64,000 bases of DNA from Thermoplasmatota archaeon (lineage in GTDB: Archaea > Thermoplasmatota > E2 > JACPAO01 > JAHFTW01), in NCBI GenBank assembly GCA_041601615.1, contig JBFIHX010000007.1, positions 87,805 through 151,804 on the forward strand, given 5' to 3'. A program made the translations under genes and the position numbers. Positions 8,190-52,663 of this stretch are shown in pieces (the stretch's first letter is position 1; each line of letters opens with the position of its first letter). The notes beneath the pieces are model-generated. The model was not told the DNA's origin, searched no databases, and saw only the letters and a list, made by a program, of their open reading frames with translations.

Positions 8190-8282
8190 TCATCGACCCT
8201 GACCACAACCGTATTCACCCGCCGCCAAGTGGATTCCTTCGTGGATGGGCCCGGCGCCGACGCGGCACCCTCAAAACCCAGC

Positions 8283-35816: not shown

Positions 35817-35940
35817 GGAGCCACGATTCTTCGAACACGGACCTAGAGCCACGCGTTGCCCCCGGCGCCTGCAAGTGCCCCCCCTCCGCGTCGTTTGCCG
35901 ATTTTGGTCCCCCAAGACGTCCTCAAACCCGTGTGCTACC

Positions 35941-36045
35941 CCCGCCCGGCCCCCGCAATCGTTCCTGCAATCGTTCCTGCATACGTTCCCGCAAACATCC
36001 CCTCCATCGTCCCCGCGAATACCCCTGCAATCGACCCTGACTGAT
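35941..36045. repeat. degenerate 12-bp tandem array (~8 units, consensus CC[CT]GCAATCGTT) in a CA-rich spacer
   Basis: 'cccgcaatcgttc ctgcaatcgttc ctgcatacgttc ccgcaaacatcc cctccatcgtcc ccgcgaataccc ctgcaatcgacc' is seen directly. It lies between the HTH_10 regulator gene and the secreted-protein gene. Confidence 0.6.
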
Positions 36046-36339
36046 CCCCCGCTCAGCCTTGGCGCTGGCCCCGCTTGTGTCCCCGATTGTGTCCCCGCTC
36101 CCATCCAGGCAGAGGCCCGCACCAGAGCCCACACGCCAGGACACATACACATCTCCCCATCGAACCAATCCATCCATTTGTCGAAGCTTTCGAGCATCAA
36201 TTTTCAAGCAATTTTCGGGCACCGGACCCAAACGCCCAAGGGGCCCCACACACCCACAGGGGACTCCGACAGCCGCACATGTACGGGTCGTAGAATGATT
36301 ATGTCGAACGCCCACCCAATGCACCTTGAGGTGGTCCAC

Positions 36340-37092
36340 ATGACCCAAAAAACAAGCTCCCACGCTCCGGCCCCACCCCGAACACCGGCCCACGGCCACG
36401 GCACACGCACCACGCGGACCGCCGCGCTCCTCGTCTTTGCCGCCATCGCCTTTGCACCCACCATTCCCGCCCAACCAGACACCTTGGACCCAACCTGCTT
36501 CGAACCAGGCATGAACGTTCAATGCAACGAATTTGGCTCCATCATGATGGAAAACCAACGCGACATCCGAGGCGAACCCATCCTCATCAACGTCACCGCC
36601 ATCCTGCACACCGTCCACCTGGACGCCGACGCACGCTGGATCATGTTCAGCGTCCGCCACAGCCCCGAAGACGGCAGCAGCCCCATCTCCATCGCACCCC
36701 TCAGCTTCACCAGCCCCTTCGGCGACATCATCACCTCCAGCGTCGACCAAGCAACACCCAGCGAAGTCAATTTCTGGGTCCATGTCATCGACGTACCCCT
36801 CGACACCCCGACAACCATTGAAGTCCTCGTCGGTGCAAGCGAACGCGGCGCCTTCCGCTTAGAAGCCCTGGTCATGGCCTTCGACCGAGCCTACGAGCCC
36901 ATCAAAGGCGCCGACGGAACGGACCAATCCTTGTTCTCGTTCACCCTCCTGGGTGTCAACGGCGAGACCAAGCGGACCGCCACCGCAAGCACCGGCGAGG
37001 ACAAGTTCCGCGCCCCCGGCCCCGGAGCCGCCCTCACCTTCGGCGCCCTCCTTGCCATCGCCGCACTCGTCACACGGAGGCGCCTCGGATGA
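36340..37092 (+). CDS. secreted protein with PGF-CTERM-like tail
   Basis: Start at ATG 36340 (alternative 36295). The signal region is '...TRTAALLVFAAIAFAPTIPAQ'. C-terminus '...FRAPGPGAALTFGALLAIAALVTRRRLG*'. The upstream 465 nt of the track ORF is low-complexity and treated as non-coding. Confidence 0.6.
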   Translation: MTQKTSSHAPAPPRTPAHGHGTRTTRTAALLVFAAIAFAPTIPAQPDTLDPTCFEPGMNVQCNEFGSIMMENQRDIRGEPILINVTAILHTVHLDADARWIMFSVRHSPEDGSSPISIAPLSFTSPFGDIITSSVDQATPSEVNFWVHVIDVPLDTPTTIEVLVGASERGAFRLEALVMAFDRAYEPIKGADGTDQSLFSFTLLGVNGETKRTATASTGEDKFRAPGPGAALTFGALLAIAALVTRRRLG

Positions 37093-37754
37093 GCCCCCCC
37101 GACCGCCGCACCAGTCCCGTAGGCAACCAATTGCTCGAAATCGTGCGCACCCAACCCGGCATCCACTTCCGAGCCCTCGAACGCGCCGCCGAACTACACT
37201 CCGCCGGCCAACTGCGCCACCACGTCGACCGCCTCCTCCACAAAGGAGCCCTCATCGAAGTGCCCGACGGCGGCTACACGCGCTACTTCGTCGCCAACGA
37301 ACACGACCGCCGCCTACGCCCACGCCTAGCACGATTCGCCCGCCCCATCCCCCGCCGCATCGGCATCCTCCTGCTCGAACAAAGCCTCAACCGCACCGAA
37401 CTACGCCACCGCCTACGCTGCGCCGACTCCACCCTCGGATACTACCTCAAACGCATGGAAAAAGAGGGAGACATCATCAAGTGCAAAGGCCGAACCTGCT
37501 GCCACTACCGACTCGCCGACGCCGACATTCTCCGCGAGGTGTTCAAAGTGCCCCGCCCCGTCCTCGGCGCCCTCGAACCCGCCACCGGGCCCCGCGCAAC
37601 CCAAACACCTCCCAGGAAATCCGACGCGCAACCCACGCCAACCACCCCGACCACCCCAAACCCACCACCCACACAACCGCCCCGAGGGACCCCCTGGAAC
37701 CGCCCCGCCCCAACCCGCCGCAGCGTGACCAACCAGGAGCTGGTCAGCCGTTGA
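37089..37754 (+). CDS. tandem winged-helix DNA-binding protein with Pro/Thr-rich tail
   Basis: Two wHTH units are present: 'GIHFRALERAAELHSAGQLRHHVDRLLHKGALIEV' and 'LNRTELRHRLRCADSTLGYYLKRMEKEGDIIKCK'. An ATGA overlap with the upstream gene gives translational coupling. Confidence 0.55.
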   Translation: MSPPDRRTSPVGNQLLEIVRTQPGIHFRALERAAELHSAGQLRHHVDRLLHKGALIEVPDGGYTRYFVANEHDRRLRPRLARFARPIPRRIGILLLEQSLNRTELRHRLRCADSTLGYYLKRMEKEGDIIKCKGRTCCHYRLADADILREVFKVPRPVLGALEPATGPRATQTPPRKSDAQPTPTTPTTPNPPPTQPPRGTPWNRPAPTRRSVTNQELVSR

Positions 37755-39052
37755 CCCACCCACAAACCCTGCCCAACCGAGCACGAAACCTCCTACAAAA
37801 CGCCCAGCACCGCACCACGTTCTACCTCCTCATGAACAACGCCATGGCCGCCGGCACCGGGCTGCTCTTCTGGTTCATCATGGTCCGCATCGCAGACATC
37901 CCCACAGGCCAAATCGGCGTCGGATACTCCATCATCGCACTCGGCACCACCGTCGCCCTCGTAGCCAAAGGCGGCCTCGACACCGCACTCCTGCGCAACG
38001 TCCCCAAAGCCAGCGACCGCGAAGGACTCCGCCTCCTCGGCGTCGGCATCCTCGTCGGCGCCAGCGCCGCCATCCTCCTCTCCGGCAGCCTCGCCCTCGC
38101 CGCCAGCACAGGAGGTCCCCTACCACAACTCGCCCGCTGGGGCTGGCTCCTCGTCGCCATCATTGCCATGCTCATGGTCGGCACCTCCCTGCAAGATGCC
38201 TGGTTTCTGGCCCAAGGCGACGCACGATCCACCTTCCGCCGCAACGTCGTCTTCAGCAGCGCACGGATCATCCTACCCCTCCCCATCCTCGCCCTCGCAC
38301 CACCCGAACCCGTCCCCCTCATCTGGCTGCTCGCCCTCATCGCCGCCACTCTCACCGGCATCGCACTCGCCCGCCACCGCCCCCACCACGACGGCGGCTC
38401 CGTACCCCGCCGCGCATTCCTAGGATGCGCACTGCGCAACATCACCAGCAGCGCCGCCGAATTCCTACCCGGCCTCCTGCTCGTCCCCCTCGTACTTGCC
38501 ACCCAAGGCCCCGCCGCCGCCGGCTACTTCGGCATGGCCTGGACCGCTGCCGCCCTCCTATTGCTCGGCTCCGCCACCATCGGACGAAGCGCCCTCACAT
38601 CCATGGTACGCGACGAACCACCCGCCACCGCCGTACGCCGCGCCGCCAACCAAGCCCTGTTGGTGCTCGGCCCCGTCGCCGTACTCGGCGCCCTCCTTGC
38701 CCGCTTTGTCATGGCCATCTTCGGCACCGACTATGCCACCGAATCCGCCCCCTCCTTCGCCATCCTCTGCGCAAGCACCCTATTCGTCGCCCCCTCCTTC
38801 CTCTACCTCGCATACCTACGCGCCCGCGATCGGCCCGCAACCCTCCTGCTGTTTCCCTTAGCCATGATCGCCGTCCTCTTCCTGCTCGCGCCGCCGCTCG
38901 CCCTCCTCTTCGGACTCGCCGGCGTCGCCCTCGCATGGCTCCTAGCCAACGCCCCCTTCGGCATCTTTGCCCTCTGGCGCCTCAGCCGCATCGCAAAGGA
39001 GGTGACAACCCATGCTACCCCGAATCTCTGTGGTGATCCTCACCCTGAATGA
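37751..39052 (+). CDS. polysaccharide biosynthesis membrane protein (Wzx-like flippase, MOP superfamily)
   Basis: It has 12 or more TM helices, and 'FYLLMNNAMAAGTGLLFWFIMVRIADIPTGQIGVGYS' resembles the Wzx N-terminal region. TTG 37751 (a TTGA overlap with the upstream gene) is the inferred start; the conservative alternative is ATG 37832. Confidence 0.6.
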   Translation: MTHPQTLPNRARNLLQNAQHRTTFYLLMNNAMAAGTGLLFWFIMVRIADIPTGQIGVGYSIIALGTTVALVAKGGLDTALLRNVPKASDREGLRLLGVGILVGASAAILLSGSLALAASTGGPLPQLARWGWLLVAIIAMLMVGTSLQDAWFLAQGDARSTFRRNVVFSSARIILPLPILALAPPEPVPLIWLLALIAATLTGIALARHRPHHDGGSVPRRAFLGCALRNITSSAAEFLPGLLLVPLVLATQGPAAAGYFGMAWTAAALLLLGSATIGRSALTSMVRDEPPATAVRRAANQALLVLGPVAVLGALLARFVMAIFGTDYATESAPSFAILCASTLFVAPSFLYLAYLRARDRPATLLLFPLAMIAVLFLLAPPLALLFGLAGVALAWLLANAPFGIFALWRLSRIAKEVTTHATPNLCGDPHPE

Positions 39053-40190
39053 AGCCCGCAACATCACAGACTGCCTGCAAGCACTCGCCACCCAAGACAA
39101 CCACGGCTTCGAAGTCATTGTCGTGGACGCAGCCAGCACCGACGACACCGTGGCCCGTGTTCGCGCCCTGCAAAACTCCTTCCCCGTCCCCCTGCGCATC
39201 GAAGCCTCCCCCCACCGACTCCCAATCGGCGAAGCACGCAACCTCGGCGTAGCCCTCGCCGACCACCCCGCCATCGCATTCATGAGCGCCGACGTCGAAC
39301 CACGCCCCGACTGGATCAGCCGCGCCCGACACCACCTCCAACACTACGCCATGGTGTTCGGACGACAACTCCACGCACCACAACACTGGACCGTCGCCGC
39401 CAGCGTGCGCGGACTCCGCTACAACTTCCCATCCTCACCCGTCGCAAACCCACTCCCCCTCTGCTCCAACGTCGCCAGCGCCTTCGACCGACACATCCTG
39501 ACCGCACACCCCTTCGAGCCCAACGCTGACGCCGCCGAAGACCTCCTACTCGCCCTGCGGGCCGCCGCCGACGGACACCAAGCCACCTACGACCCCGACC
39601 TCATCGTACGCCACCACGACATCCAAACCATGAGCGAAGAACTTCGCAAAGTACGCCGCGAAGGACGCGCCTGGGGCCGACACCACCACGAACTCGGACC
39701 CCTGCCCGCCCTGCTTGCCTGGGCCGCCGCCCTCGTCCTCGCCGCCCCCTTCGTACGCCTCGCACCACGCATCCTCGGCCCCGCCTACACCGGAATCCTC
39801 TGGGCCCCCGCCATGCGCCGAGCCCGCCGCCGACGCCACACCATGCCCGCCGATGCGCTGCTCGCAGGCACCCTCGCAAGCCCCACCTACGACCTCGCCT
39901 TCCTACTCAACTACCTCCGCGGCCGCGCCAACCCGGACGCCCCTCCACGCCCCGGACTCGCCCCGCGACCCACCCCGCCGCCGCCGCATCCATCCACCCA
40001 TCCCCGTCCAACCTCATCCCCTCCACCCCCACAGCCCTCCACCCAAACCTCAACCCCACCCTCCACCCCATCATCCACCCAAGCCTCTGCCCCACCTTCC
40101 ACCCCACCCTACGCCCCATCATCTACCCCACCTTCTACCTCGCCCTCTGCCCACCCCACCAGCCAAACCGACCAGGAGACCACAACATGA
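39012..40190 (+). CDS. family 2 glycosyltransferase with ~95-aa Pro/Ser/Thr-rich C-terminal tail
   Basis: 'ISVVILTLNEARNI', 'VIVVDAASTDDT' and 'MSADVEP' are GT2 motifs. The tail 'PRPTPPPPHPSTHPRPTSSPPPPQPSTQTSTPPSTPSST...' is in frame up to a stop overlapping the next start. Confidence 0.75.
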   Translation: MLPRISVVILTLNEARNITDCLQALATQDNHGFEVIVVDAASTDDTVARVRALQNSFPVPLRIEASPHRLPIGEARNLGVALADHPAIAFMSADVEPRPDWISRARHHLQHYAMVFGRQLHAPQHWTVAASVRGLRYNFPSSPVANPLPLCSNVASAFDRHILTAHPFEPNADAAEDLLLALRAAADGHQATYDPDLIVRHHDIQTMSEELRKVRREGRAWGRHHHELGPLPALLAWAAALVLAAPFVRLAPRILGPAYTGILWAPAMRRARRRRHTMPADALLAGTLASPTYDLAFLLNYLRGRANPDAPPRPGLAPRPTPPPPHPSTHPRPTSSPPPPQPSTQTSTPPSTPSSTQASAPPSTPPYAPSSTPPSTSPSAHPTSQTDQETTT

Positions 40191-41557
40191 CCCACGCCAC
40201 CGTATTCATCATCATGGACGCCGGACGCTCCGACTACGTCCGCCCCGAAACCATGCCTTTCATCCACGGCCTCGCCCAACAAAGTGTGCGCAGCGCCTTC
40301 GACAGCCCACCCGGATTCGCCCAACGCACCGTACTCTTCAGCGGCCGCTACCCCGACACCAGCGGCAACTTCAGCGCCTTCGTTTTCGACCCCGAACACA
40401 GCCCCTTCCAATGGGTGCGCAAACTCGGCCCCGCCCGCGCCCTCATCCGACCCCGCAAAGCCCTCTTCCCCACCCGCATCGCCGTCAACAAAACCACCAA
40501 GTGGATCACCAAGGCCTACCACACCGACCCCGCCTGGATCCCCCCCAAATTCCTACCCTTCTTCCGCCCCTGCGAAGACATGCGCCCCCTCTACGAACCC
40601 GGCGCCCTCGGAGCCAGCAGCATCTTCGACCTCTGCCGCAAACACGACCTCAAATTCCGCTACCTCGCCCACCCCGTCAGCGGCGATGACGAAGAAATCC
40701 ACGAAATCCTCACCCGCGAACTACGCGCCGGCGCCGACTACGACCTCTACGTTGCCCAATTCAGCGTCACCGACGAAAAAGGACACAAACACGGCCCCTT
40801 CAGCGACGCAATGCAGAAAGGCTTCCTACGCGACCTCGACCAAAAAATCGCCAGCATCCACGCCGCCCTCAGCGCCGGCTACGACGACTGGGACCTCTTC
40901 CTGTGCGGCGACCACGGCATGGCCCCCGTCGAACGCAAAGTCAACGTCCTCAAAGCCCTAGCAAAAGCCGACGCCAAACCCGCACGCGACTACGTCGTCT
41001 TCGTCAACAGCACCCTCGCCGTCTTCTGGTACCTCACCGACAAAGGCCGCCAAGCCATCGAACAAGTACTCCCCCACGTCCCCGGCACCCACGTCGTCGA
41101 CGAAGAAGAACGCAAACGCCGCCGCATCCCCACCGACCGCCAATGGGGCGACCGCATGCTCGCCGCCGAACCAGGCGTCCTGTTCTGGCCCGACTACTTC
41201 CATGTCACCGACTCCAAAATCGTCGGCATGCACGGCTACCTCGACAAACGCCACGAAACCTTGGGCATGGGCGTTCTCGCATCCAACAACGGCCACACCC
41301 GACCCCGCGACGCCGGCGCCCGACCCCTCGTAGACGTCTTCCCCACCCTCTGCGACCTCCTAGGCCTCCCAACACCACCCGGCCAAGAAGGAACCAGCAT
41401 CCTGCACAAGTACGACGAAACGCCAGAACCACCAGCCACACCCAGCACCGAAACCAGCTCCCAAACGGGGCCCGAACCCGACGCCCCCGCAACCGAGCAA
41501 CTCATCGCCGCACCCACCAAAACGCCGACCCAAACCAGGACAACTCCAGCCACCTAG
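40187..41557 (+). CDS. alkaline-phosphatase-superfamily protein (type I phosphodiesterase/nucleotide pyrophosphatase-like) with PT-rich tail
   Basis: 'VFIIMDAGRSDY' is the N-terminal metal-ligand Asp motif and 'LFLCGDHGM' the distal His motif of AP-superfamily enzymes. Confidence 0.7.
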   Translation: MTHATVFIIMDAGRSDYVRPETMPFIHGLAQQSVRSAFDSPPGFAQRTVLFSGRYPDTSGNFSAFVFDPEHSPFQWVRKLGPARALIRPRKALFPTRIAVNKTTKWITKAYHTDPAWIPPKFLPFFRPCEDMRPLYEPGALGASSIFDLCRKHDLKFRYLAHPVSGDDEEIHEILTRELRAGADYDLYVAQFSVTDEKGHKHGPFSDAMQKGFLRDLDQKIASIHAALSAGYDDWDLFLCGDHGMAPVERKVNVLKALAKADAKPARDYVVFVNSTLAVFWYLTDKGRQAIEQVLPHVPGTHVVDEEERKRRRIPTDRQWGDRMLAAEPGVLFWPDYFHVTDSKIVGMHGYLDKRHETLGMGVLASNNGHTRPRDAGARPLVDVFPTLCDLLGLPTPPGQEGTSILHKYDETPEPPATPSTETSSQTGPEPDAPATEQLIAAPTKTPTQTRTTPAT

Positions 41558-41568
41558 GAGGCAAAACC

Positions 41569-42624
41569 ATGCCCTACACGGCACACGACACCCCCGCCAT
41601 CGTCACCCGCATCCAATCCGACCTCCACCACATCGTACAAGTCGTTCGCAGCGCCGATCCCGGCCTACAAAGCCTCGTACTCACCGGCGGATTCGCACGC
41701 GGAGAAGGATCCGTACGAGGCGGCGAGCCCCAGAACGACTACGACCTCATCGCCATCCGCACCCGACGACACGGCAGGCCTTCCCCCTCCTACGACGCGC
41801 TTCGAGCCCGCCTCGAAAACGACCTCGGCCTCCACATGGACCTCGCCCCCGTCGGCGCCTGGAGACTCTCCTGGACCGCCCCCTCCATCTTCTGGTACGA
41901 AACCGCCCAACGCGGCCAAGTGCTCTACGGCAAAAACCTCCTCCACCGCATCCCCCGACGCAGCCCCCAAGACCTCGAACCCACCGAAGCGCTACGCCTA
42001 CTCGTCAACCGCGCCGCCGGCCTCCTACTCGCCACCCAAGACCATGACGACGAAAAACGACTGCAAGCAAGCAAAGCCCTCCTTGCCACCCTCGACACAC
42101 ACTTGCTCGCCGCCGGCCACTTCGCACCCAGCCAAACCGAACGCTGGAACCTCCTTCACCAACTACACCAACAAGGCAACGCCCCCGCCGCCCTTACCTA
42201 CATCCACGACGAACTGCACTGGGCCTTCGCCCACAAAACCAGCCCCGACACCACGCCCCACATGGACGCAAACACAGCCTGGCAAAGCGCCGCCCGCGCC
42301 CTAATCGACGCCATCCCCACCGCACTTCGACACGCCGCCCTCCCCTGCCTCGACGCCTACAAAACCCACGACGGCCTCCTCGACCGCCTCCACTTCTGGC
42401 TCCACGCAAACGAAGTGCCCGGCGCCAACCGAAGCAGCCCCCACCCCACAGGCCACGTCCGCGTCGCCACCCTCCGCCTCCTCGAAGCATCCCTCGACGG
42501 CAACGTTCCAGCCTCCGCCGCCCACACCCACCTAGATCCAATCCTTGGCCGCCGCAACCACGAAAGCACCCCCGGCGGCGCCCTCGGCCTCCTATCCGCC
42601 CTGCGCCGTGCGACCCTGCAATAA
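41569..42624 (+). CDS. nucleotidyltransferase-domain protein (Pol-beta-like NTase fold)
   Basis: 'LVLTGGFARGEGS...NDYDLIAI' is the G[GS]x9-13Dx[DE] NTase signature. The rest of the protein is helical. Confidence 0.5.
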   Translation: MPYTAHDTPAIVTRIQSDLHHIVQVVRSADPGLQSLVLTGGFARGEGSVRGGEPQNDYDLIAIRTRRHGRPSPSYDALRARLENDLGLHMDLAPVGAWRLSWTAPSIFWYETAQRGQVLYGKNLLHRIPRRSPQDLEPTEALRLLVNRAAGLLLATQDHDDEKRLQASKALLATLDTHLLAAGHFAPSQTERWNLLHQLHQQGNAPAALTYIHDELHWAFAHKTSPDTTPHMDANTAWQSAARALIDAIPTALRHAALPCLDAYKTHDGLLDRLHFWLHANEVPGANRSSPHPTGHVRVATLRLLEASLDGNVPASAAHTHLDPILGRRNHESTPGGALGLLSALRRATLQ

Positions 42625-43138
42625 CTCCCCCGCGTCGCCGCCACTCCCCCCGCCCCCAACCCAGCACCAAGCCAGCACCAAGCGCACACCAACATCGTCC
42701 CTCAACCACCATCCCCAGCCACACCCCAGTGCCTCCCGATGCAAACCCCGCATCAGGAACCCTTCATGCACCAAAACAACCACCGACACACAAGCAACGG
42801 ACGCAGCCACCCCACGCGCCCCCAACGACCCGCACGAAATACAGACACCGGCCCCGCCCGCGCGGACCACTCCAACCACGCCGCCGACGACGAAAGCACC
42901 ACCACCCAGCGGCAAATCCACCGCAGCTACTTCTGAACACCCGATCCCCATTCTTCCCCCCTTGCGCCGCACCCCACACCCGGGAAGACCCGCGGCAACC
43001 CATTGCAATAACTAGGAAACAAACCTCCCACGCCCGGTGAAAACCACGCCTTCCAACCGGCTCCAAAATCGTCCCCAAACCACCATGGTTCTCCCGCAAC
43101 AAGTGATTCTCAGCGCCCACTGGCGTTAGGAAATCACC

Positions 43139-43786
43139 ATGCAAAAAACCGGACAACCCCAGAACCATCGAGTCAGCTTCTCCCTCGCGTTGGCCTTCAC
43201 CGTCGCCGCGTTCCTCCTCATCCCCACCGCCGCCTCAGCCGGCGAAGACCACGACGAATGCGACGACATCGACATGTTCAGCTACGGCGACCACGACGGC
43301 TGCCGTCCGCCCTGCGAATACGAAAACGGCACCCTGTCGATCTTCTACGGCAACTACGACCGCTGCAAACCCCGCTGCCCCGTCGACACCGGCGCAGGCG
43401 CCATTGCCCTCAACTACGGCGAGAACAAGCACTGCCGACCGTACTGTGAGAAGGACCAGATCCCCACCGCCGCCGTCATTGGAAACGGCGACCACGAACA
43501 CTGCAAACCCCGCTGTGAAAAGGAATACGACAACAACGTCGCACACCTCGGTAACGGCGACCACAAACACTGCAAACCGCGCTGCGAACGAAACGGCGAG
43601 AACCCCATGAGTTACGGCTACCGCCACTGCAAGCCCGAGTGCGAACGCGACGAACCGATGCAATCCAACATCTTCGGCTACAAGGATGAATGCGTCGAAA
43701 TCCCCGTGTTCCCAACCATCGCAGCCGGCATGTTCGCCGTCGTCGGCGGAGGCCTCGCCTACGCCGCAATCCTGCGCCGCCAGTGA
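43139..43786 (+). CDS. secreted Cys/His-rich repeat protein with 'IPVFP' C-terminal sorting tail
   Basis: Signal peptide 'VSFSLALAFTVAAFLLIPTAASA'. Six ~20-aa repeats run 'GDH.HCKPRCE...' (for example 'NGDHEHCKPRCEKEYDNN' and 'NGDHKHCKPRCERNGENP'). C-terminus 'EIPVFPTIAAGMFAVVGGGLAYAAILRRQ*'. Confidence 0.7.
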   Translation: MQKTGQPQNHRVSFSLALAFTVAAFLLIPTAASAGEDHDECDDIDMFSYGDHDGCRPPCEYENGTLSIFYGNYDRCKPRCPVDTGAGAIALNYGENKHCRPYCEKDQIPTAAVIGNGDHEHCKPRCEKEYDNNVAHLGNGDHKHCKPRCERNGENPMSYGYRHCKPECERDEPMQSNIFGYKDECVEIPVFPTIAAGMFAVVGGGLAYAAILRRQ

Positions 43787-43883
43787 AGCAAATCGCCACT
43801 CAAGACCCCCTGACCCCCACCTTCTCGATTCCACCTTGCACCTCCCGATCCCATTCGGGCGGATGTGGCCCCTTCGGGCGTTG

Positions 43884-43928
43884 CCACCACCACCACCACC
43901 ACCACCACCACCACCACCACCACCACCA
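43884..43928. repeat. (CCA)15 perfect trinucleotide microsatellite, intergenic
   Basis: 45 nt of uninterrupted 'cca' units are seen directly. They lie between the Cys/His-repeat gene and the second archaeosortase-like gene. Confidence 0.85.
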
Positions 43929-44109
43929 ATCCTGTCCCTGAACCCCCATCGCCTTCGCCACCCCATCCGTACGCAGTGCGCCCGCCAGAGAGGATGACCA
44001 TGCCACGAACACCACCCACCACCACACTCCACACCCGCCTGCAAACCTGGAACCGCCCACAAAACCACCGACGCAATCGCCCCACAACCAACCCAGGAGG
44101 CAAACCCGC

Positions 44110-44994
44110 GTGAAACGCAGCCTCTGGAGCCTCATGGGCCTCGGACTCGCCGGCTACGGCACCCTCGTCCTGCTGCGCGTCATCACCCACGAATCCATGT
44201 TCGCCGGCGCCGCCAGCCTGATCGCCGGCCTCGCTCTTTTGGTCGTCGGCCTACCCCCCCTGCACCTACGCCACGGCAAAATCGTCGCAGCCATCGGCGG
44301 CATCTGTGTCGCTGGCGTGCTCCTCTACAACCTCGCCCGCCGCTCCGACCTCGGCATCCCCGAATGGGGCATCCTCGCCTACGGCCTCCTCTTGCTTCTG
44401 GCCGCATCCCGACTCGACCACCGCATCCGCCGCCTCGACGTAGGCACCCTCGTCGCCTGGTCCTTCCCGTTGATACTGGCTCCCTTAACCATGTTCAGCC
44501 TCAACGCCGGCATCAGCGCCGGCCAAGGCGAAACCGCCGCCAGCCCCATCGTACACGCCCTCGTCGTCCTCCCCTCCGCCGCCCTCCTCGGCATCATGGG
44601 CACCTCCCTCGACGTGGTCGGCAACAGCTTCGTCATGGACACCCCCCGAGGCTCCCTCACCCTCGGCGTCGGCCTCGTCTGCGCCGGCCTATATCCCATG
44701 GTCCTCTTTGGCGGCCTCGTCGCCCTCCACGGCTGGCAAAACAAACTCCGCCCCGGACGCCTCGCCGCCTACCTCGGCACCGGCATCCTCGGCCTCTGGT
44801 TCGTCAACCTCATCCGACTCGTCATCCTCACCCGCGTCGGCGCACGGTGGGGCGTCCACGCCCTCGAAACCGTCCACGCCCACATCGGCTGGATCCTCTT
44901 TGCGGGCTTCATGGTGCTGTTTTGGGGCATCGTGCTGCGCAAAATCGAAGGCCGCCTGCCCCCAGCCCAAGCAGCACAACCCGACGAGACCTAG
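44110..44994 (+). CDS. exosortase/archaeosortase-family candidate (7-8 TM, 294 aa) flanked by IPVFP-tailed genes
   Basis: TM Cys in 'GVGLVCAGLYPMVLF' (Cys191), then 'FVNLIRLVIL' (Arg236) and 'IVLRKIE' (Arg277). The spacing C-45-R-41-R resembles ArtA C173/R214/R253 (recalled from memory). Size and topology fit; the assignment is by pattern only. Confidence 0.4.
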   Translation: MKRSLWSLMGLGLAGYGTLVLLRVITHESMFAGAASLIAGLALLVVGLPPLHLRHGKIVAAIGGICVAGVLLYNLARRSDLGIPEWGILAYGLLLLLAASRLDHRIRRLDVGTLVAWSFPLILAPLTMFSLNAGISAGQGETAASPIVHALVVLPSAALLGIMGTSLDVVGNSFVMDTPRGSLTLGVGLVCAGLYPMVLFGGLVALHGWQNKLRPGRLAAYLGTGILGLWFVNLIRLVILTRVGARWGVHALETVHAHIGWILFAGFMVLFWGIVLRKIEGRLPPAQAAQPDET

Positions 44995-45140
44995 GCCGCC
45001 CACTACGGCCCCGACCTCGGTCCCGAGCCCTCTCCCATCCCCCCCTTTGCGACCACCCCAACGACCCTGTCCCTGAATCTCCATGCCACGCGGAGACGAG
45101 TTCCACCCAGGCTCGCACACAGCGACCAGGAGACAGACAC

Positions 45141-45962
45141 ATGAACCAAAAACCGACCCGCAAACACCCGCAACGAAGCACATGGGGCATCGCCGCCCTC
45201 GTGCTCCTTGCAGCCGCAGTGGTGCTCGCCTCGACGCCCCAAGCCACGGCGCACAACGGCAACGTCGGCACCATCAAAGTACACGACAGCGAACAAGTGG
45301 ACACGCCCCAGAGCAACGACCCGCACGTCACTTGCCAATTCTGGATCCAAGGCTTCGGCATGGACGGCGACGAAGGCACCCTCGTCTTCATCGACTGGCC
45401 CCCCACAGGCAACAAAGACATCGTCATGGACGACGACTGGTTCGGTACCCCCGACGGCAACGGCGGCTTTGACTTCCTCAACGGCCCCTACAGCCTGCCC
45501 CCCGGACACTACCGCGTCGAAGCCTACAGCACCGACGGCCACCCCGGCAACCACGGACACTTTGCCAAATCCAAGATGTTCTGGGTCGACCCCTGCGACG
45601 ACGTACCCGAATTGAGGTGCCCCACGGATTTGACCGCCATCGAAACCGAGAACGGCAACATCCTCGTGAACTTCACGCCCGCCCCCGGCAGCGACGGCAC
45701 CAACATCTACCGCAGCGTCAACGGCGGCCCCTTCGACTACCTCGACACCCTCGCACCCGCCGCCACGCAATACCTCGACACGGACGCAAATCCCTTGACC
45801 GGATACGCATACTACGTCACGGCATTGTACGACGACCGCGAAAGCCAAGACTGCCCGATCACGGAGCTACGGACCATCCCGGTGTTCCCCGGCGTCTTTG
45901 CTGGGGTAATGGCCGCGGTGGTTGGAGTTGTGGCGTATGGAGGGTTGAGGAGGAAGACGTAG
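45141..45962 (+). CDS. secreted protein with FN3-like domain and 'IPVFP' C-terminal sorting tail
   Basis: ATG 45141: 'MNQKPTRKHPQRSTWGIAALVLLAAAVVLASTPQATA'. The FN3-like region is '...ILVNFTPAPGSDGTNIYRSVNGGPFDYLDT...YYVTALYDD'. C-terminus 'TIPVFPGVFAGVMAAVVGVVAYGGLRRKT*'. Confidence 0.7.
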   Translation: MNQKPTRKHPQRSTWGIAALVLLAAAVVLASTPQATAHNGNVGTIKVHDSEQVDTPQSNDPHVTCQFWIQGFGMDGDEGTLVFIDWPPTGNKDIVMDDDWFGTPDGNGGFDFLNGPYSLPPGHYRVEAYSTDGHPGNHGHFAKSKMFWVDPCDDVPELRCPTDLTAIETENGNILVNFTPAPGSDGTNIYRSVNGGPFDYLDTLAPAATQYLDTDANPLTGYAYYVTALYDDRESQDCPITELRTIPVFPGVFAGVMAAVVGVVAYGGLRRKT

Positions 45963-46092: not shown

Positions 46093-47169
46093 TCACTCGA
46101 TGCGAGGGCCTGAGTGAAGCGCCCAGGCCTCCCTAAGGCCAACGAGACCGTCGAGATTTTTCGCAATCTCAGGATGGGTTGAAAGTGCGCCATTATCCAT
46201 CCAGGCCTTTCGGGGCTCCAATTGAACCTGAGGACGCCAGGAATCCTGCCAATTCAGGTCCTCGGCCAAGATTCCACTCAATGCGTCATGCGCACATCCA
46301 GCCACGCGTCGAAGGTCAAGCTCAGAAAACTTGCCTTCAATCGTGCTGCGCACTTGCGAGTAGGCACGCCAAAGACTCCGAACAAGTCCTGTTCCCGCCG
46401 CTCGATTGGCCACCAACAACCGGAGTTGTAACTGTGCGTCAGCGATTACGGCCTCAAGTTTGAATGTACCACTAAGATAATCGCGTTTTCGCACAATATC
46501 CTCGTGTGCGGCGGCAGTAATTGCGTTGCTGTCTAGGTCAATTGGAGCCAAGCAAAGTAGGTCGAATAAATCTTTGATTCTGCTCTTTCTGCCATGGTCA
46601 ACGCCCAAATTTCTCCCATACGGGTACTCCGAACACATGAGGAGTTTCTGGGCGGCCTGGGTGTTTTCGTCTGGACCCAGTACAATGGGTCCGGATTTCC
46701 AAGGTGCCGGTAATTTCCACTCGGCTAACCCCTGAGGCCAGTTCGAATATTCCAGAACATCAATTCGCAGCGAGTAGCCAACGCCACCTTGAGCCAATGG
46801 GAAGAAAACTCCAAGTGTATTCCCTTGAAGAGGAGATTTTCCCTGGGTGAGTTGAAGGCCGCTGGCTGAAAAATCATCAACAAATTGCTGAATTGCTCTT
46901 GTAATGGCGGACGAATCATGCGTCTCAAGGTCTACGTCAATGCTGGCCCTTCGCGGAGGCCATCGAAGGCGGCTTTGCAGCAGCGTTCCCCCTTTGAACA
47001 AAAAGGGTTCATCTGCCCGAGTCGAAATTTGACTCAGTACTTCGAGTGCGAGTGCATTGCGAAGCCGTTGTTGGCCCCAAGCACCATGTACATCCAATAG
47101 TCTGCCTTCATCAAATTCTTCTGAATCGGCAAAAAGGTTCGGATGGTCCGGCTTCGCAAATGGACTCAT
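46093..47169 (-). CDS. AbiEii/AbiGii-family nucleotidyltransferase toxin (type IV TA / abortive infection)
   Basis: 'FLFKGGTLLQSRLRWPPRRASIDVDL' matches the AbiEii KGGTAL...DxD NTase motif. The start is refined to M49 (MSPFAKP). Local GC is lower than the flanks. Confidence 0.75.
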   Translation of the reverse strand: MSPFAKPDHPNLFADSEEFDEGRLLDVHGAWGQQRLRNALALEVLSQISTRADEPFLFKGGTLLQSRLRWPPRRASIDVDLETHDSSAITRAIQQFVDDFSASGLQLTQGKSPLQGNTLGVFFPLAQGGVGYSLRIDVLEYSNWPQGLAEWKLPAPWKSGPIVLGPDENTQAAQKLLMCSEYPYGRNLGVDHGRKSRIKDLFDLLCLAPIDLDSNAITAAAHEDIVRKRDYLSGTFKLEAVIADAQLQLRLLVANRAAGTGLVRSLWRAYSQVRSTIEGKFSELDLRRVAGCAHDALSGILAEDLNWQDSWRPQVQLEPRKAWMDNGALSTHPEIAKNLDGLVGLREAWALHSGPRIE

Positions 47170-48008
47170 GCCAACTCCGCAATATATGAACCCACGAGTC
47201 CAGGGACCAAAACCTGGAAGCAGTCTTGCTGATCTCTTGTCAACCTCGGATATACTGCAGTTACAAATGCAGTGAACTCCGGCAGGATGTCGAGGGCTAC
47301 CGCACATTGCCATGCCCGACGTATGTCAAATCCCTGTCGTATCTGATGCTCAACAATGGCTCGACCCACATCGATCTCTGCATCCATCGAAAGGAATTCG
47401 AGCATGATTCGCTCCGAAAAAGGTGTCCGAAATCCCCTGCGGTTCACGGCAGTCCCCCCGATGCGTTCCTCCGCAACGAGGGCAATATCCATCCCTGGGT
47501 CATGCCCCCTCGGCTCACTCGTTAGAGCACCGCCGAGCGGTCCAGCTCGATTGTGTTGGCGCGGCACCAACCACGCCCCATGCCCCTTCCTAGATTCATA
47601 TTCACTATTGAGAACCTCTAGCAATTGCGTCGCAAGGCGGGTCTCGACAACAACGTGCCGCCCTTGGACCCCATCTTCCGACAGGGCGAGATAGGGTGTT
47701 GCGTCCCAGACTACCGTGCGCGCCATTTCCTCCGGGCGCAGATAGGAATGCAAAAACTCGACAAGCCCTTCAATCGGTTCGCCCAGTGCCTCATGAGACC
47801 GAGTTAATGTGTATCGGGCTTTTCCAATTTGGTCGACGACTCCAATCTGAAGCAGTTCCGATAGTCGCCCTCGAAGCGGCCCCGTCGCGGCAGGAGTTCC
47901 CTGTTTTTCCAATTGGTCATGCAATTCTTGGACCGACAATCCTTCCTCTTTGGCCTCGAGCAGCAGGGCTAGGATGTGGTCGCGAAGGCGCAGTATCACA
48001 GCAGTCAT
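47166..48008 (-). CDS. AbiEi-family antitoxin/transcriptional regulator
   Basis: N-terminal wHTH 'LLLEAKEEGLSVQELHDQL' and a C-terminal AbiEi-type domain. The 4-nt overlap with the AbiEii gene is the standard AbiE operon organisation. Confidence 0.7.
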   Translation of the reverse strand: MTAVILRLRDHILALLLEAKEEGLSVQELHDQLEKQGTPAATGPLRGRLSELLQIGVVDQIGKARYTLTRSHEALGEPIEGLVEFLHSYLRPEEMARTVVWDATPYLALSEDGVQGRHVVVETRLATQLLEVLNSEYESRKGHGAWLVPRQHNRAGPLGGALTSEPRGHDPGMDIALVAEERIGGTAVNRRGFRTPFSERIMLEFLSMDAEIDVGRAIVEHQIRQGFDIRRAWQCAVALDILPEFTAFVTAVYPRLTRDQQDCFQVLVPGLVGSYIAELA

Positions 48009-48139: not shown

Positions 48140-49522
48140 TCACCCACCCCAAACCACCACCCCTCCCTCCACAACTTCCCCCAATCCGTCAACGGCCACA
48201 AACCGCACCTCCGTCCCCGCAAAGATGTGCACGCTCCCAGACCAACTGCCCCATCCGTTCCTCGCAAGCGCCTTGGCGCCATGGTCAGGAAGCATCACCC
48301 ACACCTCCTCCACCGGATGATTCCCGACGACGCGGACCTCGACCCACCATTCGTTGATGTTGTTGGAGATTTCAAAGAGGGCGCGGAATTCGGGGTCGCC
48401 GCGTTCGGCGAGGACGCCGGCGATCCAGGCGTGGGCGGCGGGTTTGAGTTGTCCTCGTGCGTCGACGAGTCCCCAGTGTCGTTCCGCGGGTCCGTATCGG
48501 TTGGCGGGGTCCATGGTGGGGGTGTCGCGCCAGGATCGGTAGAGGATGGCTTCGACGCCGGCTTCTTCGAGTGCGTCGAGTCCTGCTAGGAGTTCTTGGA
48601 CGGCGTCGGCTTGGGGTTGGGCAAATTCGTCTTCGGGGTAGGAGCTGAGGGCGAGGTCGGTGAGGATGACGGGTTTGGCAAATAGGCGTTGGAGTTCTTT
48701 GGCGCCTTGGAGGGTTTCTTCGTAGAGGGTTTGGTAGTCGTCGGCGCTGTCGTGGGTGGAGCCTCGGACGGCTTGGAGGCCGATGGCGTCGCTGGCTTCG
48801 GCGGCTCTGTCCCAGGTTGTCCATGCGGCGGGGTTCCAGTTGCCAAAAGAGAGGACGACGCGGGCGGCGGGGTAGCGTTCGTGGAGGAAGTTGGCCATGT
48901 CGGCGAGGCGTCCGTCGAGTTCTTCGTAGGTTTGGACGGTTTGTTTGTTGAATTCGGATTCGAGGAGAATGAGGACGGGTTCGCCCCCCATGTGTTCGTC
49001 GAGGTGGTCGACGAGTTGGCCGGCGAGGGCGTACCAGCCGTGGTTGTCTTTGTAGGCGTCGTGGAGTTCGGACCAGCAGCCGTCTTGGAAGCAGGCGGGT
49101 TGGATGTCGTCGCCCCAGTAGTAGAAGTGGAGGGCGGGGGTGATGTTGGCGGCGCGCATTCGATGGAGGGCTTGGTCGACGGGTCGCCAACCATTGGTGA
49201 GGGTCCAGGCGCCGATCCATTCGGAGGCATAGTCGGGTTGGATGCCGAGGATGGTTTGTTGTTCGAGTGATCCGTGGCTGATGCCGAATTTCATCACGGG
49301 GCCGGGTGGCGAGGTAGGGGTTGGCGGTGGGTTGGGTGGTGTTTGGGGGGTGGGTGGTTGCGCGGGGCCGGGCGTCGGTGTGCCTTGGTTTGGGTCGATG
49401 GTGGGGGATGGCTCGGGGTCGGCTTGGATGGGCCAGAAGCCGGGTTCGTGCCAGAGGGGCCAGGAGGTGGTGATAAGAAATCCCGCTAGCAGGACGACGA
49501 TGATTCCATGGATTGCTTTCAT
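48140..49522 (-). CDS. secreted glycoside-hydrolase-like TIM-barrel enzyme (family unassigned) + PT linker + one C-terminal CBM-like beta-sandwich module
   Basis: Signal 'MKAIHGIIVVLLAGFLITTSW'. 'HFYYWGDD', 'ILLESEFNK' and 'VLSFGNWNP' are shared with the paralog at 52804. C-terminal 'NEWWVEVRVVGNHPV...GWGSWSGSV...VRFVAVDG' is the repeat module. Confidence 0.6.
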   Translation of the reverse strand: MKAIHGIIVVLLAGFLITTSWPLWHEPGFWPIQADPEPSPTIDPNQGTPTPGPAQPPTPQTPPNPPPTPTSPPGPVMKFGISHGSLEQQTILGIQPDYASEWIGAWTLTNGWRPVDQALHRMRAANITPALHFYYWGDDIQPACFQDGCWSELHDAYKDNHGWYALAGQLVDHLDEHMGGEPVLILLESEFNKQTVQTYEELDGRLADMANFLHERYPAARVVLSFGNWNPAAWTTWDRAAEASDAIGLQAVRGSTHDSADDYQTLYEETLQGAKELQRLFAKPVILTDLALSSYPEDEFAQPQADAVQELLAGLDALEEAGVEAILYRSWRDTPTMDPANRYGPAERHWGLVDARGQLKPAAHAWIAGVLAERGDPEFRALFEISNNINEWWVEVRVVGNHPVEEVWVMLPDHGAKALARNGWGSWSGSVHIFAGTEVRFVAVDGLGEVVEGGVVVWGG

Positions 49523-49585
49523 GGCGGCTCAACTCGGGGGGTCGGGGGGGTCGGAGGCCTGGGGCCGTGGGTTGGTGGGAAGGGA

Positions 49586-50821
49586 TTAGGGTGTGTTTTG
49601 GGTGGTGGCGGCGCGTCCGAGCACTTGTTCGGTGGCTTGGGTGATGTGGTCCCAGTTGTGGTGTTGCAGGACGCGGGCGCGGCCTCGTTTTCCCATGGCG
49701 TGGGCTTCGTCGGGGTCTTGGAGGATGGCGAGGAGTTTTTTGGCGAGGTCTTGGGGGTTGCTTGGTTGGGCTAGGAGGCCGTTGTCGCCGTGGCGCACGA
49801 AGTCGGGGATGCCGCCGATGTTGGAGGCGACGACGGGGGTGCCGCAGGCGTTGGCTTCGGCGAGGACCATGCCGAAGGATTCGGCGTCGGTGGTGCTGGG
49901 TAGGGCGAGGACGCTGGCTTGTTGGTAGGCGGCGACGAGTTGTTCTTGGTTGAGTCGAGGGTGGAGGTGGATGGTGTCGCCGCTGGCGTGTGCGAGGCGT
50001 TGGAATTCGGGGAGGCGGTCGCCGGTCCCTACCAATTCGAGGGTGGCGTTGGGGATGCGCTGGCGGATGGTTTCGAAGGCGTGGCAGAGGGTGTCGATGC
50101 CTTTCCAGCGGTAGGATCGGCTGAGGGGGGCGACGAAGAGGATGGAGGGTGCGTCGTGCTTCGTGGGTTTTGATGGGGCTTGCGACTTGGGTGGGCTTGG
50201 TGGGTCGGTGGGCAGGGGAGTGGCGAGCTTGGCGGTGTTGGTTGTGTCGTGGTTGGGGGGTGTGAATTGCTGTGCGTCGACGCCGGGGGGGATGATGGTG
50301 GTGCGGTCGCGGTGGGCGGCAAGGGCGTTGTCGCGCACGAAGGGGCTGACGGCGATGAGGCCGGCGGAGCCGTGGAACATGCGTTGTTCGATAGTGGCGT
50401 CTAGGAGGTGGGCGATGGTTTCGAGGAGGATGTTGCTGCCGTGGAGGCGGCCGGCGTGGTAGGTGGTGACGAAGGGGATGCCTCGGCGGGCGGCTTGTTT
50501 GTAGGCGGTTTCGGCGGCGAAGGGTACGGGGCAGTGGGCGACGATGACGTCGGGGTCGAATTCTTGGATGCCGTGGTCGAGGAGGCGGCGGTAGCGTGGG
50601 TCGATGGGGGTGTGGCCGAGTTCGAGGCGGGCGCGGGTGCGGTGGACGTGGACGCCGTGGCTGGTGCTTCCGGCTTGGTAGCTGGGCAGTGCTTGACGGG
50701 TCATGGTTGCGACCTGGACTTGGTGGCCTCGGGCGGCGAGTCTTGTGAGGATGGCGCGCGCGTAGTGCTCGAGGCCGCCGCCTTCGGGCTCATAGTAGGG
50801 CGTGGCGCAGAGGATGCGCAA
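49586..50821 (-). CDS. family 4 glycosyltransferase (GT-B)
   Basis: 'MRILCATPYYEPEGGGLEHYA' and the E-x7-E region 'DAESFGMVLAEANACGTPVVASNIGGIPDFV' identify GT4. Confidence 0.85.
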   Translation of the reverse strand: MRILCATPYYEPEGGGLEHYARAILTRLAARGHQVQVATMTRQALPSYQAGSTSHGVHVHRTRARLELGHTPIDPRYRRLLDHGIQEFDPDVIVAHCPVPFAAETAYKQAARRGIPFVTTYHAGRLHGSNILLETIAHLLDATIEQRMFHGSAGLIAVSPFVRDNALAAHRDRTTIIPPGVDAQQFTPPNHDTTNTAKLATPLPTDPPSPPKSQAPSKPTKHDAPSILFVAPLSRSYRWKGIDTLCHAFETIRQRIPNATLELVGTGDRLPEFQRLAHASGDTIHLHPRLNQEQLVAAYQQASVLALPSTTDAESFGMVLAEANACGTPVVASNIGGIPDFVRHGDNGLLAQPSNPQDLAKKLLAILQDPDEAHAMGKRGRARVLQHHNWDHITQATEQVLGRAATTQNTP

Positions 50822-52007
50822 GGACAGTCACCTCCGAGGCATGGGGTTGGGGCGGGTTGCCCGATGCGGAGCCGGGTTTGCTGGGGCTTTGGAGGATTTC
50901 TTCGTAGATGTCAAGGAGTCGTGTGGTGACGGCGTTCCAGGAGTAGGTGGCGCGAACGGGGCTGGCGAGGGTTTCGCCGCGGGGGAGTTTGCGGTTGCGG
51001 AGGGCTTCTTGGATGCAGGCGGCGAGGGCGGCGGGGTCGCCGGGGGGTGCGACGAGTCCGCCGACTTGGGCGACGTCGGCGACTCCGGGGAGGGCGGAGG
51101 CGACGACGGGGGTGCCGCAGGCCATGCTTTCGAGAAGCGAGATGCCGAAGGCTTCCTGGCGGTTGATGCTTGGGAGGATGGTGAGGGCGGCGCCTCGGTA
51201 GAGGGCGGGGAGGTCGGTGTCGTCGACGCGGCCTAGGAATCGTGCGGCAACACCGAGGCGTCGGGCGAGTGCTTCGAGGGGTTTGCGAAGGGGTCCGTCG
51301 CCGGCGATGACGAGGGGGGGTGCTTCGGGGATGCGGGCGAGGGCGTGGAGGAGGATTTCGATGCCTTTGTAGGGTACGAGTCGGCCGACGACGAGGAGGT
51401 GTCCGCCGCCGAGGACTCGGCCGAGGGGGTGGAAGCGCTCGGGGTCGATGCCGTTGGGGACGACGCGCCAGCGTTCTTCGGGGATGCTGCGGAGGCTTGG
51501 GGCGCTGCGGCCGTAGGAAAGGGAGCGTACGAGGGTGGTGTGGGCGAGGCGGTAGTTTGGGGGGCCGATGTAGCGGTAGGCGGCGGCGGCGAGGCGGCCG
51601 AGGGGGGTGCCGGGGGCGGGTTCAAAGTGGAAGTCGAGGACGCCGGGGACGCCGAGGGTTGTGGCTTTGCGCAGGACGCCGGGGGTGGTGAATGGGTAGG
51701 TGGCGGCGACGTGGATGAGATCGGCGCTGCGGGGGATGAAGCGGGCAAGATCCGCGACGGGGGCGCGTAGGATGAGGCCGCGTCGTCGTACGCGGACGGT
51801 TTGGACGCCGGATTTCAGTTGGATGTCGTTGCGGTGGGCGCTGGAGCAGACTACGGTGACTTGGTGGCCGCGGGCGGCGAGGCGTCGGGAGACTTCGGAG
51901 AATACGCGCTCTACGCCGCCGACGTGTGCGCCTCGGTCGCCTGGTCGCGTGGGGCCTGGACCGCTGCCGGGGTCGGGGTCGAAGGGCGAGACGAGCGCGA
52001 TGTGCAT
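50790..52007 (-). CDS. family 4 glycosyltransferase (GT-B)
   Basis: Start refined to 'MHIALVSPFDPD'. '...QEAFGISLLESMACGTPVVASALPGVADV' is the GT4 motif. It overlaps the 5' end of the downstream GT4 by about 30 nt. Confidence 0.8.
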   Translation of the reverse strand: MHIALVSPFDPDPGSGPGPTRPGDRGAHVGGVERVFSEVSRRLAARGHQVTVVCSSAHRNDIQLKSGVQTVRVRRRGLILRAPVADLARFIPRSADLIHVAATYPFTTPGVLRKATTLGVPGVLDFHFEPAPGTPLGRLAAAAYRYIGPPNYRLAHTTLVRSLSYGRSAPSLRSIPEERWRVVPNGIDPERFHPLGRVLGGGHLLVVGRLVPYKGIEILLHALARIPEAPPLVIAGDGPLRKPLEALARRLGVAARFLGRVDDTDLPALYRGAALTILPSINRQEAFGISLLESMACGTPVVASALPGVADVAQVGGLVAPPGDPAALAACIQEALRNRKLPRGETLASPVRATYSWNAVTTRLLDIYEEILQSPSKPGSASGNPPQPHASEVTVLAHPLRHALL

Positions 52008-52156: not shown

Positions 52157-52663
52157 ATGGCCCCATGGAGCGTGAATCACGTGCGTTCGATAAGCAAAGC
52201 AGGAGAAAATCGGTGTGCGTCGGTTCGACGTGTGACGCTGGCAAGCGTAGGGCTTGGTTTGGCCTTGGCGTTGCTGGGCGCAGTACCCCAAGTCGGGGCG
52301 TCGGCCCCTCCTGCTGCACTCATCGAATTGGAGTGGTCCGAGAACAACCGAGGCGTTGAGATTTTATCAGACGACTATTTATTCTCATTTTTGGCCGAGG
52401 ATTGTGATGGACTCTTCTTTGAAACCTATTGGAGCTTTCCAGGCACCAAAACCTACGTCTTTTTCCTCAATATCCCCATCGTCAAAGTGTGGGTCACTGC
52501 CGGGTGGAATGAGACGGAGACCGGCCCCAGTGGCGAGGCACAGTTGTTTGTGAATGAGGGTGTTGATTGCAGCAAAATTCCGGTGTTCCCGACCATGCTG
52601 GCCGGGGTTGCGGCGGTGGCTGTGGGCGCGGCGTCGTATGCGACGGTCCGTCGCCGAAAGTAG
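52157..52663 (+). CDS. small secreted protein with 'IPVFP' C-terminal sorting tail
   Basis: ATG 52157. The signal region is '...RRVTLASVGLGLALALLGAVPQVGASA'. C-terminus 'SKIPVFPTMLAGVAAVAVGAASYATVRRRK*'. The gene body is locally lower-GC. It is the only plus-strand gene inside a minus-strand cluster. Confidence 0.55.
   Translation: MAPWSVNHVRSISKAGENRCASVRRVTLASVGLGLALALLGAVPQVGASAPPAALIELEWSENNRGVEILSDDYLFSFLAEDCDGLFFETYWSFPGTKTYVFFLNIPIVKVWVTAGWNETETGPSGEAQLFVNEGVDCSKIPVFPTMLAGVAAVAVGAASYATVRRRK

Follow-up and report, generated by a model that had tools for sequence, protein, structure and literature searches.

Introduction

To our knowledge, no archaeosortase other than ArtA has ever been studied experimentally, and the signals recognised by these other enzymes are known only from curated models. 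ArtA itself is thought to attach its cargo to archaetidylethanolamine. The enzyme of Haloferax volcanii cleaves the PGF-CTERM signal and attaches a lipid after cleavage, and its residues Cys173, Arg214 and Arg253 are essential (PMC9263693). Archaeosortase C (ArtC) is reported to recognise the PEF-CTERM signal (PMC5244752 and PMC9723798, both of which draw on Haft 2012). Here we analyze a 64,000-nucleotide stretch of DNA from a Thermoplasmatota archaeon (GenBank assembly GCA_041601615.1, contig JBFIHX010000007.1, positions 87,805 to 151,804), hereafter the window, in which the gene for a membrane protein of 294 amino acids (aa) is directly flanked by two genes for secreted proteins that end in a tripartite tail starting with IPVFP; a third gene for a protein with such a tail is located nearby. 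The observations described below make it probable that the 294-aa protein is a Thermoplasmatota-specific ArtC-like archaeosortase, and that the IPVFP tails are its cognate signals, a lineage variant of PEF-CTERM.

The locus resembles several described sorting systems to different degrees. With ArtA it shares the enzyme superfamily and the tripartite logic of the signal, and the conserved Cys and Arg of the 294-aa enzyme correspond to Cys173 and Arg214 of ArtA. The differences are the subfamily, the motif (IPVFP versus PGF) and the gene neighbourhood: the ArtA gene present in the same window lies beside PssA/PssD-like genes, whereas no lipid-synthesis genes are found beside the ArtC-like gene. 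The bacterial EpsH/XrtA enzymes, which act with PEP-CTERM signals and are encoded in exopolysaccharide loci, belong to a homologous superfamily, and the sortase gene analyzed here resembles that of XrtA in being part of a conserved gene cluster that includes glycosyltransferases and a polytopic protein; in contrast, the host is archaeal, the motif is another one, and the link between glycan genes and sorting is purely positional. Compared with dedicated systems of the JDVT-CTERM and similar types (10.1101/2023.06.07.544157), the enzyme is an archaeosortase rather than a myxosortase-type protease, and at least three unrelated targets are found in one genome, so that the relationship is one-to-few and not strictly one-to-one. 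The closest likeness, to ArtC and PEF-CTERM, is detailed in the following sections.

Results and discussion

An archaeosortase C-like membrane enzyme

The sortase gene starts with GTG, with GGAGG located 8 nt upstream. Its product matches the exosortase/archaeosortase signature TIGR04178 with 44.1 bits (cutoff 23), and the only specific family that it matches is TIGR03762, archaeosortase C (89.8 bits, E 2.7e-25), in a match that spans nearly the entire profile (residues 53-270 aligned to positions 55-266 of 274). The matches to the exosortase models TIGR02602 and PF09721 are weak, the latter (25.4 bits) falling marginally short of its cutoff of 25.7, and the ArtA model TIGR04125 gave no match at E <= 1. 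The AlphaFold2 (AF2) model (pLDDT 89.9, pTM 0.82) contains nine helices, hence eight to nine membrane helices, in agreement with the polytopic architecture (about eight transmembrane helices) of the superfamily, and places a small beta-sheet right before Cys191. Foldseek and sequence searches of the Protein Data Bank (PDB) revealed no solved homolog.

An exhaustive profile search for relatives of the sortase yielded 1115 representatives, of which 28 reach E <= 1e-30. In an alignment of 29 homologs, Cys191, Arg236 and His256 are invariant, and at least 90 % of the sequences have Arg277. A wider alignment was built from 116 of the top-ranking full-length relatives, among them three bona fide ArtC proteins; its invariant positions are C191, G193, R236, H256 and G260, and Arg277 is not among them. 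The bona fide ArtC proteins have the same motifs at the Cys, Arg and His positions (GxxxCxGLY, NLxR and HxHxGW), a likeness that adds to the near full-length profile match. Against this stand the scores of the three ArtC proteins on TIGR03762, 213-245 bits versus 89.8, their identity of only 24 % with the 294-aa protein, and their position in a neighbor-joining distance tree of the 116 sequences, where they form a separate clade and share with the 294-aa protein a common ancestor that is that of the whole tree. On the same profile, a sample of ten relatives from further afield gave 45-79 bits. Given this low identity, the separate clade and a score below the ArtC cutoff, the protein represents an ArtC-like but distinct archaeosortase clade.

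An earlier note on this DNA had proposed that the gene is a second archaeosortase-like gene, encoding a protein with seven to eight transmembrane helices and a Cys191/Arg236/Arg277 triad spaced as in ArtA. The profile matches (TIGR04178 and, as the best specific one, TIGR03762) bear out the family assignment, and because the window encodes a true ArtA (Table 1), the gene is indeed the second archaeosortase of this genome. The helix count has to be raised to eight to nine. Of the triad, Cys191 and Arg236 stand as invariant residues, and the third invariant among the 116 relatives is His256 instead of Arg277. C191, R236 and H256 line up with Cys, Arg and His of the window ArtA in a weak hhalign match (probability 2.3 %, E 0.02). 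The equivalence of Arg277 and Arg253 of ArtA found no support: Arg277 is not kept in the wider alignment, and the window ArtA has a Lys near this position.

The IPVFP tails and their cargo

All three cargo proteins end in the same layout, IPVFP followed by 19-20 hydrophobic residues and RR[QKR], with exactly 23 residues after the motif (Table 1). The back-translated IPVFP pattern, ATHCCNGTNTTYCC, has three matches in the window, all of them at the cargo tails, versus 0.02 expected from shuffles, and across all fetched loci the matches to this DNA pattern are confined to [IV]PxFP-type tails. Signal-peptide-like N-termini, as judged by eye, are present on 3/3 cargos, and pairwise BLASTP of the three proteins without their tails revealed nothing significant (E > 0.4). 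The tails display attributes published for tripartite sorting signals (10.1101/2023.06.07.544157, section 5): they are located at the C-terminal end, contain a signature motif with at least three near-invariant residues, a hydrophobic helix and a basic cluster, and occur several times, here three times in a 64-kb window, on otherwise unrelated proteins with signal-peptide-like N-termini.

The proteins that carry these tails differ in their makeup. Cargo 1 belongs to no family in Pfam or NCBIfam; a homolog is encoded upstream of the sortase in locus L001. The AF2 model of cargo 2 (pLDDT 86.6) shows two tandem beta-sandwich domains followed by the tail helix and has tandem-FN3 matches in the PDB. 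Its family comprises 46 homologs, nearly all of them with [IV]PxFP tails, and in most of the related loci it is this family that adjoins the sortase. An ortholog of cargo 3 occupies the equivalent relative position in L012 and ends in the same tail. P0127, which is weakly homologous (E 5e-5) to the N-terminal domain of cargo 2, carries an LPSTG-like tail (...KLPSTGAGIAALLV...), so that in another lineage this domain may go together with a classical sortase signal, although this is a single case.

In MYXO-CTERM, a Cys belongs to the signal, and we considered the same for the Cys found just before the motif, but rejected it: the offset varies (-3, -5, -6, -7, -8 and -17), and the residue is absent in P0124 and P0125. 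A disulfide within the preceding domain is the more likely role of this Cys.

The window contains four other tripartite tails, which start with GAPGAG, SPGPGA, APGPGA and SPVLPLP in place of IPVFP and therefore represent other types. The three PGF-like ones (GAPGAG, SPGPGA and APGPGA), all of which lack Phe, are found on the products of 4285..6837 (+), 18899..20665 (-) and 35875..37092 (+) and gave no match to TIGR04126 (PGF-CTERM) at E <= 0.01; the ArtA signal may be a variant in this lineage as well. The product of 392..1885 (+) ends in a tripartite tail of a third type (...SPVLPLPILLLGIVVAAAILSRRT) and has no family match.

Co-occurrence and co-variation of the enzyme and the signal

The homologs of the sortase were all from metagenome-assembled genomes (MAGs) of Thermoplasmatota or from metagenomes. 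The fetched loci were scanned for C-terminal tails that combine a hydrophobic stretch with a basic end, and the sortase-side sample consisted of 16 independent loci with a visible upstream flank. In 14 of these 16 loci, a gene with an [IV]-P-x-F-P motif, a helix and RR lies directly beside the sortase, and several loci have two such genes; L005 breaks off 0.7 kb past the sortase, too soon to be counted either way. The metagenome scan covered 10 loci, several of which end at the sortase. From the cargo side, two of the four look-ups (L029 and L030) revealed a sortase 13-14 bp downstream of the cargo, in a context without the glycosyltransferase (GT) cluster that surrounds the pair in the window. 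The arrangement of a dedicated sortase-substrate pair was thus found in the great majority of the loci approached from the enzyme and in half of those approached from the cargo.

A tally of 60 tails shows which positions of the motif are constrained. IPVFP occurs 29 times, IPFFP 8 times and IPEFP 6 times, with other variants accounting for the remaining 17. The first Pro is present in 60/60 tails, Phe in 55/60, the second Pro in 53/60 and Ile in 49/60, whereas the residue x is V in 30, F in 19, E in 6, D in 4 and T in 1. Between 22 and 26 residues ending in RR/RK follow the motif, apart from one tail with 28 (one truncated entry was excluded). In the distance tree of the sortases, x tracks the enzyme clades: V is typical of the clade of the window, E of L007 and L019, and F of a deeper clade, with T in L009 and D in L006. 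Moreover, unrelated cargos of the same genome carry the same x (three with V in the window, three with V in L001 together with L012, two with V in L003, two with E in L007 and two with E in L019). The motif changes in concert with the enzyme, as a cognate enzyme-signal pair predicts.

This series also connects the tails to PEF-CTERM. The tails start with [IV]-P-x-F-P, and with x = E, as in the IPEFP of some orthologous loci, this gives the classic PEF motif. The alignment of the L007 IPEFP tails with TIGR03024 (PEF-CTERM) begins at position 1 of the model, with 13.6-13.7 bits versus a cutoff of 23. In the window, Val stands where PEF has its acidic Glu, and x is V or F in 49/60 tails; the IPVFP tails gave no match to TIGR03024 at E <= 10. 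A search with a 44-aa tail profile against a database of 5.8 billion proteins returned three uninformative matches. Because the IPEFP tails align with PEF-CTERM below the cutoff and the IPVFP tails remain unmatched, we regard the signal as a relaxed relative of PEF-CTERM, usually with Val or Phe at the position of the Glu that gives the motif its name. The number of targets differs as well, with only a few beside the enzyme here and up to 10-19 reported for PEF-CTERM genomes in a table of PMC5244752.

What the earlier note had described at the level of the tails holds well: the three open reading frames (ORFs) with IPVFP tails are present, with a hydrophobic stretch of 19-20 residues instead of ~18, the tails are distinct from the four others in the window, and the cargo does include a Cys/His-rich repeat protein (cargo 1) and an FN3 protein (cargo 2, with tandem FN3/Ig-like domains). 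The expected co-occurrence of tail and enzyme is seen at related loci, as adjacency in 14/16 cases from the side of the sortase and in 2/4 from that of the cargo. Its suggestion that the sorting pair is possibly undescribed can be kept in part: no curated model covers the tail, but orthologous loci carry IPEFP, and the class is not wholly new. The locus pairs an archaeosortase of an uncatalogued clade with a variant of the PEF-like signal on cargo encoded close by, and is not a categorically new system.

Proposed mechanism and alternative interpretations

The assignment of the 294-aa protein as a Thermoplasmatota-specific ArtC-like archaeosortase with the IPVFP tails as its signals draws on the enzyme family, the conservation of Cys, Arg and His, the presence of the signal on unrelated cargo, the adjacency of the genes and the co-variation of enzyme and motif. 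A plausible course of events can be outlined by analogy with ArtA, the only experimentally studied model for the cleave-and-anchor mechanism proposed here. Directed by N-terminal signal peptides, the three cargo proteins would be exported and then retained in the membrane through the C-terminal helix, with RR(K/Q) inside. The sortase would then recognise IPVFP at the outer membrane face, and Cys191, together with Arg236 and His256, would cut off the helix at or near this motif and pass the mature C-terminus to an acceptor, resulting in covalent anchoring. By the same analogy, the acceptor would most likely be a membrane lipid; given the conserved glycan-type genes nearby, an acceptor other than a lipid may be used instead.

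Several observations weigh against this interpretation. The 294-aa protein remains under the curated cutoff of TIGR03762 (89.8 versus 100 bits), and none of the 29 members of its clade reaches ~100 bits on this profile. The curated sorting-domain models gave no match to the IPVFP tails. At L014, the locus of homolog P0025, no tailed gene was found within 10 kb of the sortase and, conversely, the cargo homologs in L028 and L031 (2/4 cargo-side look-ups) have no sortase within 10 kb. We know of no biochemical evidence for any ArtC-type enzyme. Finally, the same genome also encodes ArtA, a possible processing enzyme for the IPVFP tails.

A more far-reaching version, which we regard as possible but rather unlikely, is that the enzyme belongs to a distinct, unnamed Thermoplasmatota subfamily in which x (V/F/E/D/T) is a co-evolving specificity determinant and in which the cargo may go to a glycan or glycolipid made by the cluster. 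Attachment to a glycan or glycolipid is suggested because the gene sits in a cluster of GT2, PF01663 and GT4 genes and not beside lipid-headgroup genes.

The presence of ArtA leads to a quite improbable alternative, namely that ArtA processes the IPVFP tails, while the 294-aa protein acts otherwise, for example in the neighbouring glycan-synthesis cluster. ArtA is present in the window together with PssD/PssA-like genes, a trio known from Haloferax and encountered here in a Thermoplasmatota genome, and the sortase does sit within a conserved GT2/GT4 cluster. Furthermore, the PGF-like tails of the window are atypical (PGPGA, without Phe, and without a match to the curated PGF-CTERM model), so that the specificity of ArtA may be relaxed here. 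However, nothing links the tail motif to ArtA: the motif co-varies with the phylogeny of the ArtC-like enzyme and adjoins the ArtC-like gene in most loci, and in L029 and L030 cargo and sortase are only 13-14 bp apart even though the GT cluster is missing from the context.

The adjacency itself could in principle be inherited synteny, with the tails being plain, uncleaved C-terminal anchors, IPxFP a feature of the helix start or linker, and no enzyme-substrate relation between the neighbours. This is very improbable in our estimation. Most of the adjacent cargos indeed belong to one family, that of the two-domain beta-sandwich protein, so that the conservation of the motif could partly reflect common descent, and processing of the tails is deduced by analogy. 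Yet three cargos without detectable similarity share an identical motif and spacing in one genome, the motif changes in concert with the enzyme across clades, and the architecture fits that of the known sortase-type signals.

It is hardly credible that the locus is an ordinary archaeosortase C/PEF-CTERM system which the curated models missed through sequence drift and which is in no way distinct: although ArtC is the best specific match, several homologs are labelled 'archaeosortase C (PEF-CTERM variant)' by JGI, and IPEFP occurs in some orthologous loci, the bona fide ArtC proteins stand apart by score, identity and clade, most tails have Val or Phe in place of the acidic residue of PEF, and even the IPEFP tails stay under the PEF-CTERM cutoff.

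If the ArtC-like enzyme does process the IPVFP tails, the system is a compact one, in which a single enzyme has two or three small genes for its cargo nearby and a motif series (V/F/E/D/T) tracks the enzyme tree. Such a natural series could reveal how archaeosortases read their signal. The members of the clade are now labelled merely 'exosortase/archaeosortase family protein' and the cargo 'hypothetical protein'; both could be annotated with the help of two new models, covering the enzyme and an IPxFP-CTERM domain, respectively. Soil and sediment Thermoplasmatota would have two parallel predicted surface-anchoring systems.

Genomic context

Table 1 Positions of the sorting locus, the ArtA genes and the surrounding cluster in the window
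Feature	Position	Strand	Description or evidence
Archaeosortase A	7848..9557	+	TIGR04125, 126 bits (cutoff 75)
Archaetidylserine decarboxylase-like (PssD-type) gene	9637..10266	+	PssD/PssA-type matches
Archaetidylserine synthase-like (PssA-type) gene	10263..10964	+	PssD/PssA-type matches
HVO_0163-type helix-turn-helix (HTH) protein	37089..37754	+	Pfam
Polytopic membrane protein, possibly flippase-like	37832..39052	+	Pfam, synteny
GT2 glycosyltransferase	39012..40190	+	Pfam
PF01663 alkaline-phosphatase-superfamily enzyme	40187..41557	+	Pfam
Unknown 351-aa protein	41569..42624	+	G[GS]...DxD-like motif; synteny
Cargo 1	43139..43786	+	215 aa, secreted, Cys/His-rich, ~7 repeats [YN]G-x3-C-[KR]-P-x-C-E, IPVFP tail
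Cargo 1 tail	43700..43786	+	IPVFP + TIAAGMFAVVGGGLAYAAIL + RRQ; ORF end ...ECVEIPVFPTIAAGMFAVVGGGLAYAAILRRQ
Archaeosortase-family membrane enzyme	44110..44994	+	294 aa, ArtC-like, outside canonical ArtC; Cys191, Arg236, His256
Cargo 2	45141..45962	+	273 aa, secreted, two tandem beta-sandwich (FN3/Ig-like) domains, IPVFP tail
Cargo 2 tail	45876..45962	+	IPVFP + GVFAGVMAAVVGVVAYGGL + RRKT; ORF end ...LRTIPVFPGVFAGVMAAVVGVVAYGGLRRKT
AbiEii toxin gene (358 aa) and 280-aa partner	46093..48008	-	GC content 0.53 vs ~0.63 around
Secreted 460-aa protein	48140..49522	-	Gene calls and Pfam in L013
Two GT4 glycosyltransferases	49586..50821, 50790..52007	-	Gene calls and Pfam in L013
Cargo 3	52157..52663	+	168 aa, secreted, fold unassigned, IPVFP tail, ~7 kb from sortase
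Cargo 3 tail	52577..52663	+	IPVFP + TMLAGVAAVAVGAASYATV + RRRK; ORF end ...CSKIPVFPTMLAGVAAVAVGAASYATVRRRK

The sortase gene belongs to a cluster of ~15 kb that is conserved, according to tblastn, in at least six MAGs (L002, L003, L004, L006, L012 and L016). The typical order is a PGF-type protein, the HVO_0163-type HTH protein, the polytopic membrane protein, GT2 and the PF01663 enzyme, then the unknown 351-aa protein, a tailed cargo and the sortase, followed on the opposite strand by the secreted 460-aa protein and the two GT4 glycosyltransferases. The upstream block (37089..42624) was delineated by tblastn synteny in L002, L003, L005, L006 and L016, with gene calls for L016, and the downstream block (48140..52007) by synteny in L002, L003, L004, L006 and L012. 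The highest conservation in the cluster, above that of the sortase, is found in the PF01663 enzyme, which is ~75 % identical across the MAGs.

Two features are peculiar to the window, namely the location of the two-domain cargo downstream of the sortase and the insertion of a low-GC AbiEii module next to it. This module is absent from the equivalent position in the syntenic loci L002, L003, L004 and L012 and probably represents a recent insertion of the toxin-antitoxin/abortive-infection type.

A perfect (CCA)15 microsatellite (43884..43928) separates cargo 1 from the sortase as part of their spacer, and L013, an independent assembly of the same sequence, begins inside this run. The run was considered as a conserved regulatory element and discarded, being absent from the closest relative, L001. 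The coding strand of several spacers and gene ends in this part of the window (42625..43138, 43787..44109, 44995..45140, 39930..40190 and 41400..41568) consists of 47-49 % C and 10-12 % T, and the GT2 and PF01663 ORFs extend through such C-rich sequence, acquiring Pro/Thr/Ser-rich C-terminal extensions that are not present on their orthologs.

Three large secreted proteins encoded on the minus strand (48140..49522, 52804..55263 and 55826..58492) share a common N-terminal domain and have repeated C-terminal modules, including PKD in 52804..55263; no family could be assigned to the catalytic-looking part of these proteins. Across the whole window, the GC skew and AT skew flip strongly with gene orientation (about -0.39 and +0.33, respectively, at 40-44 kb, with a GC skew of about +0.39 at 50-52 kb), and the coding strands are markedly C- and A-rich.

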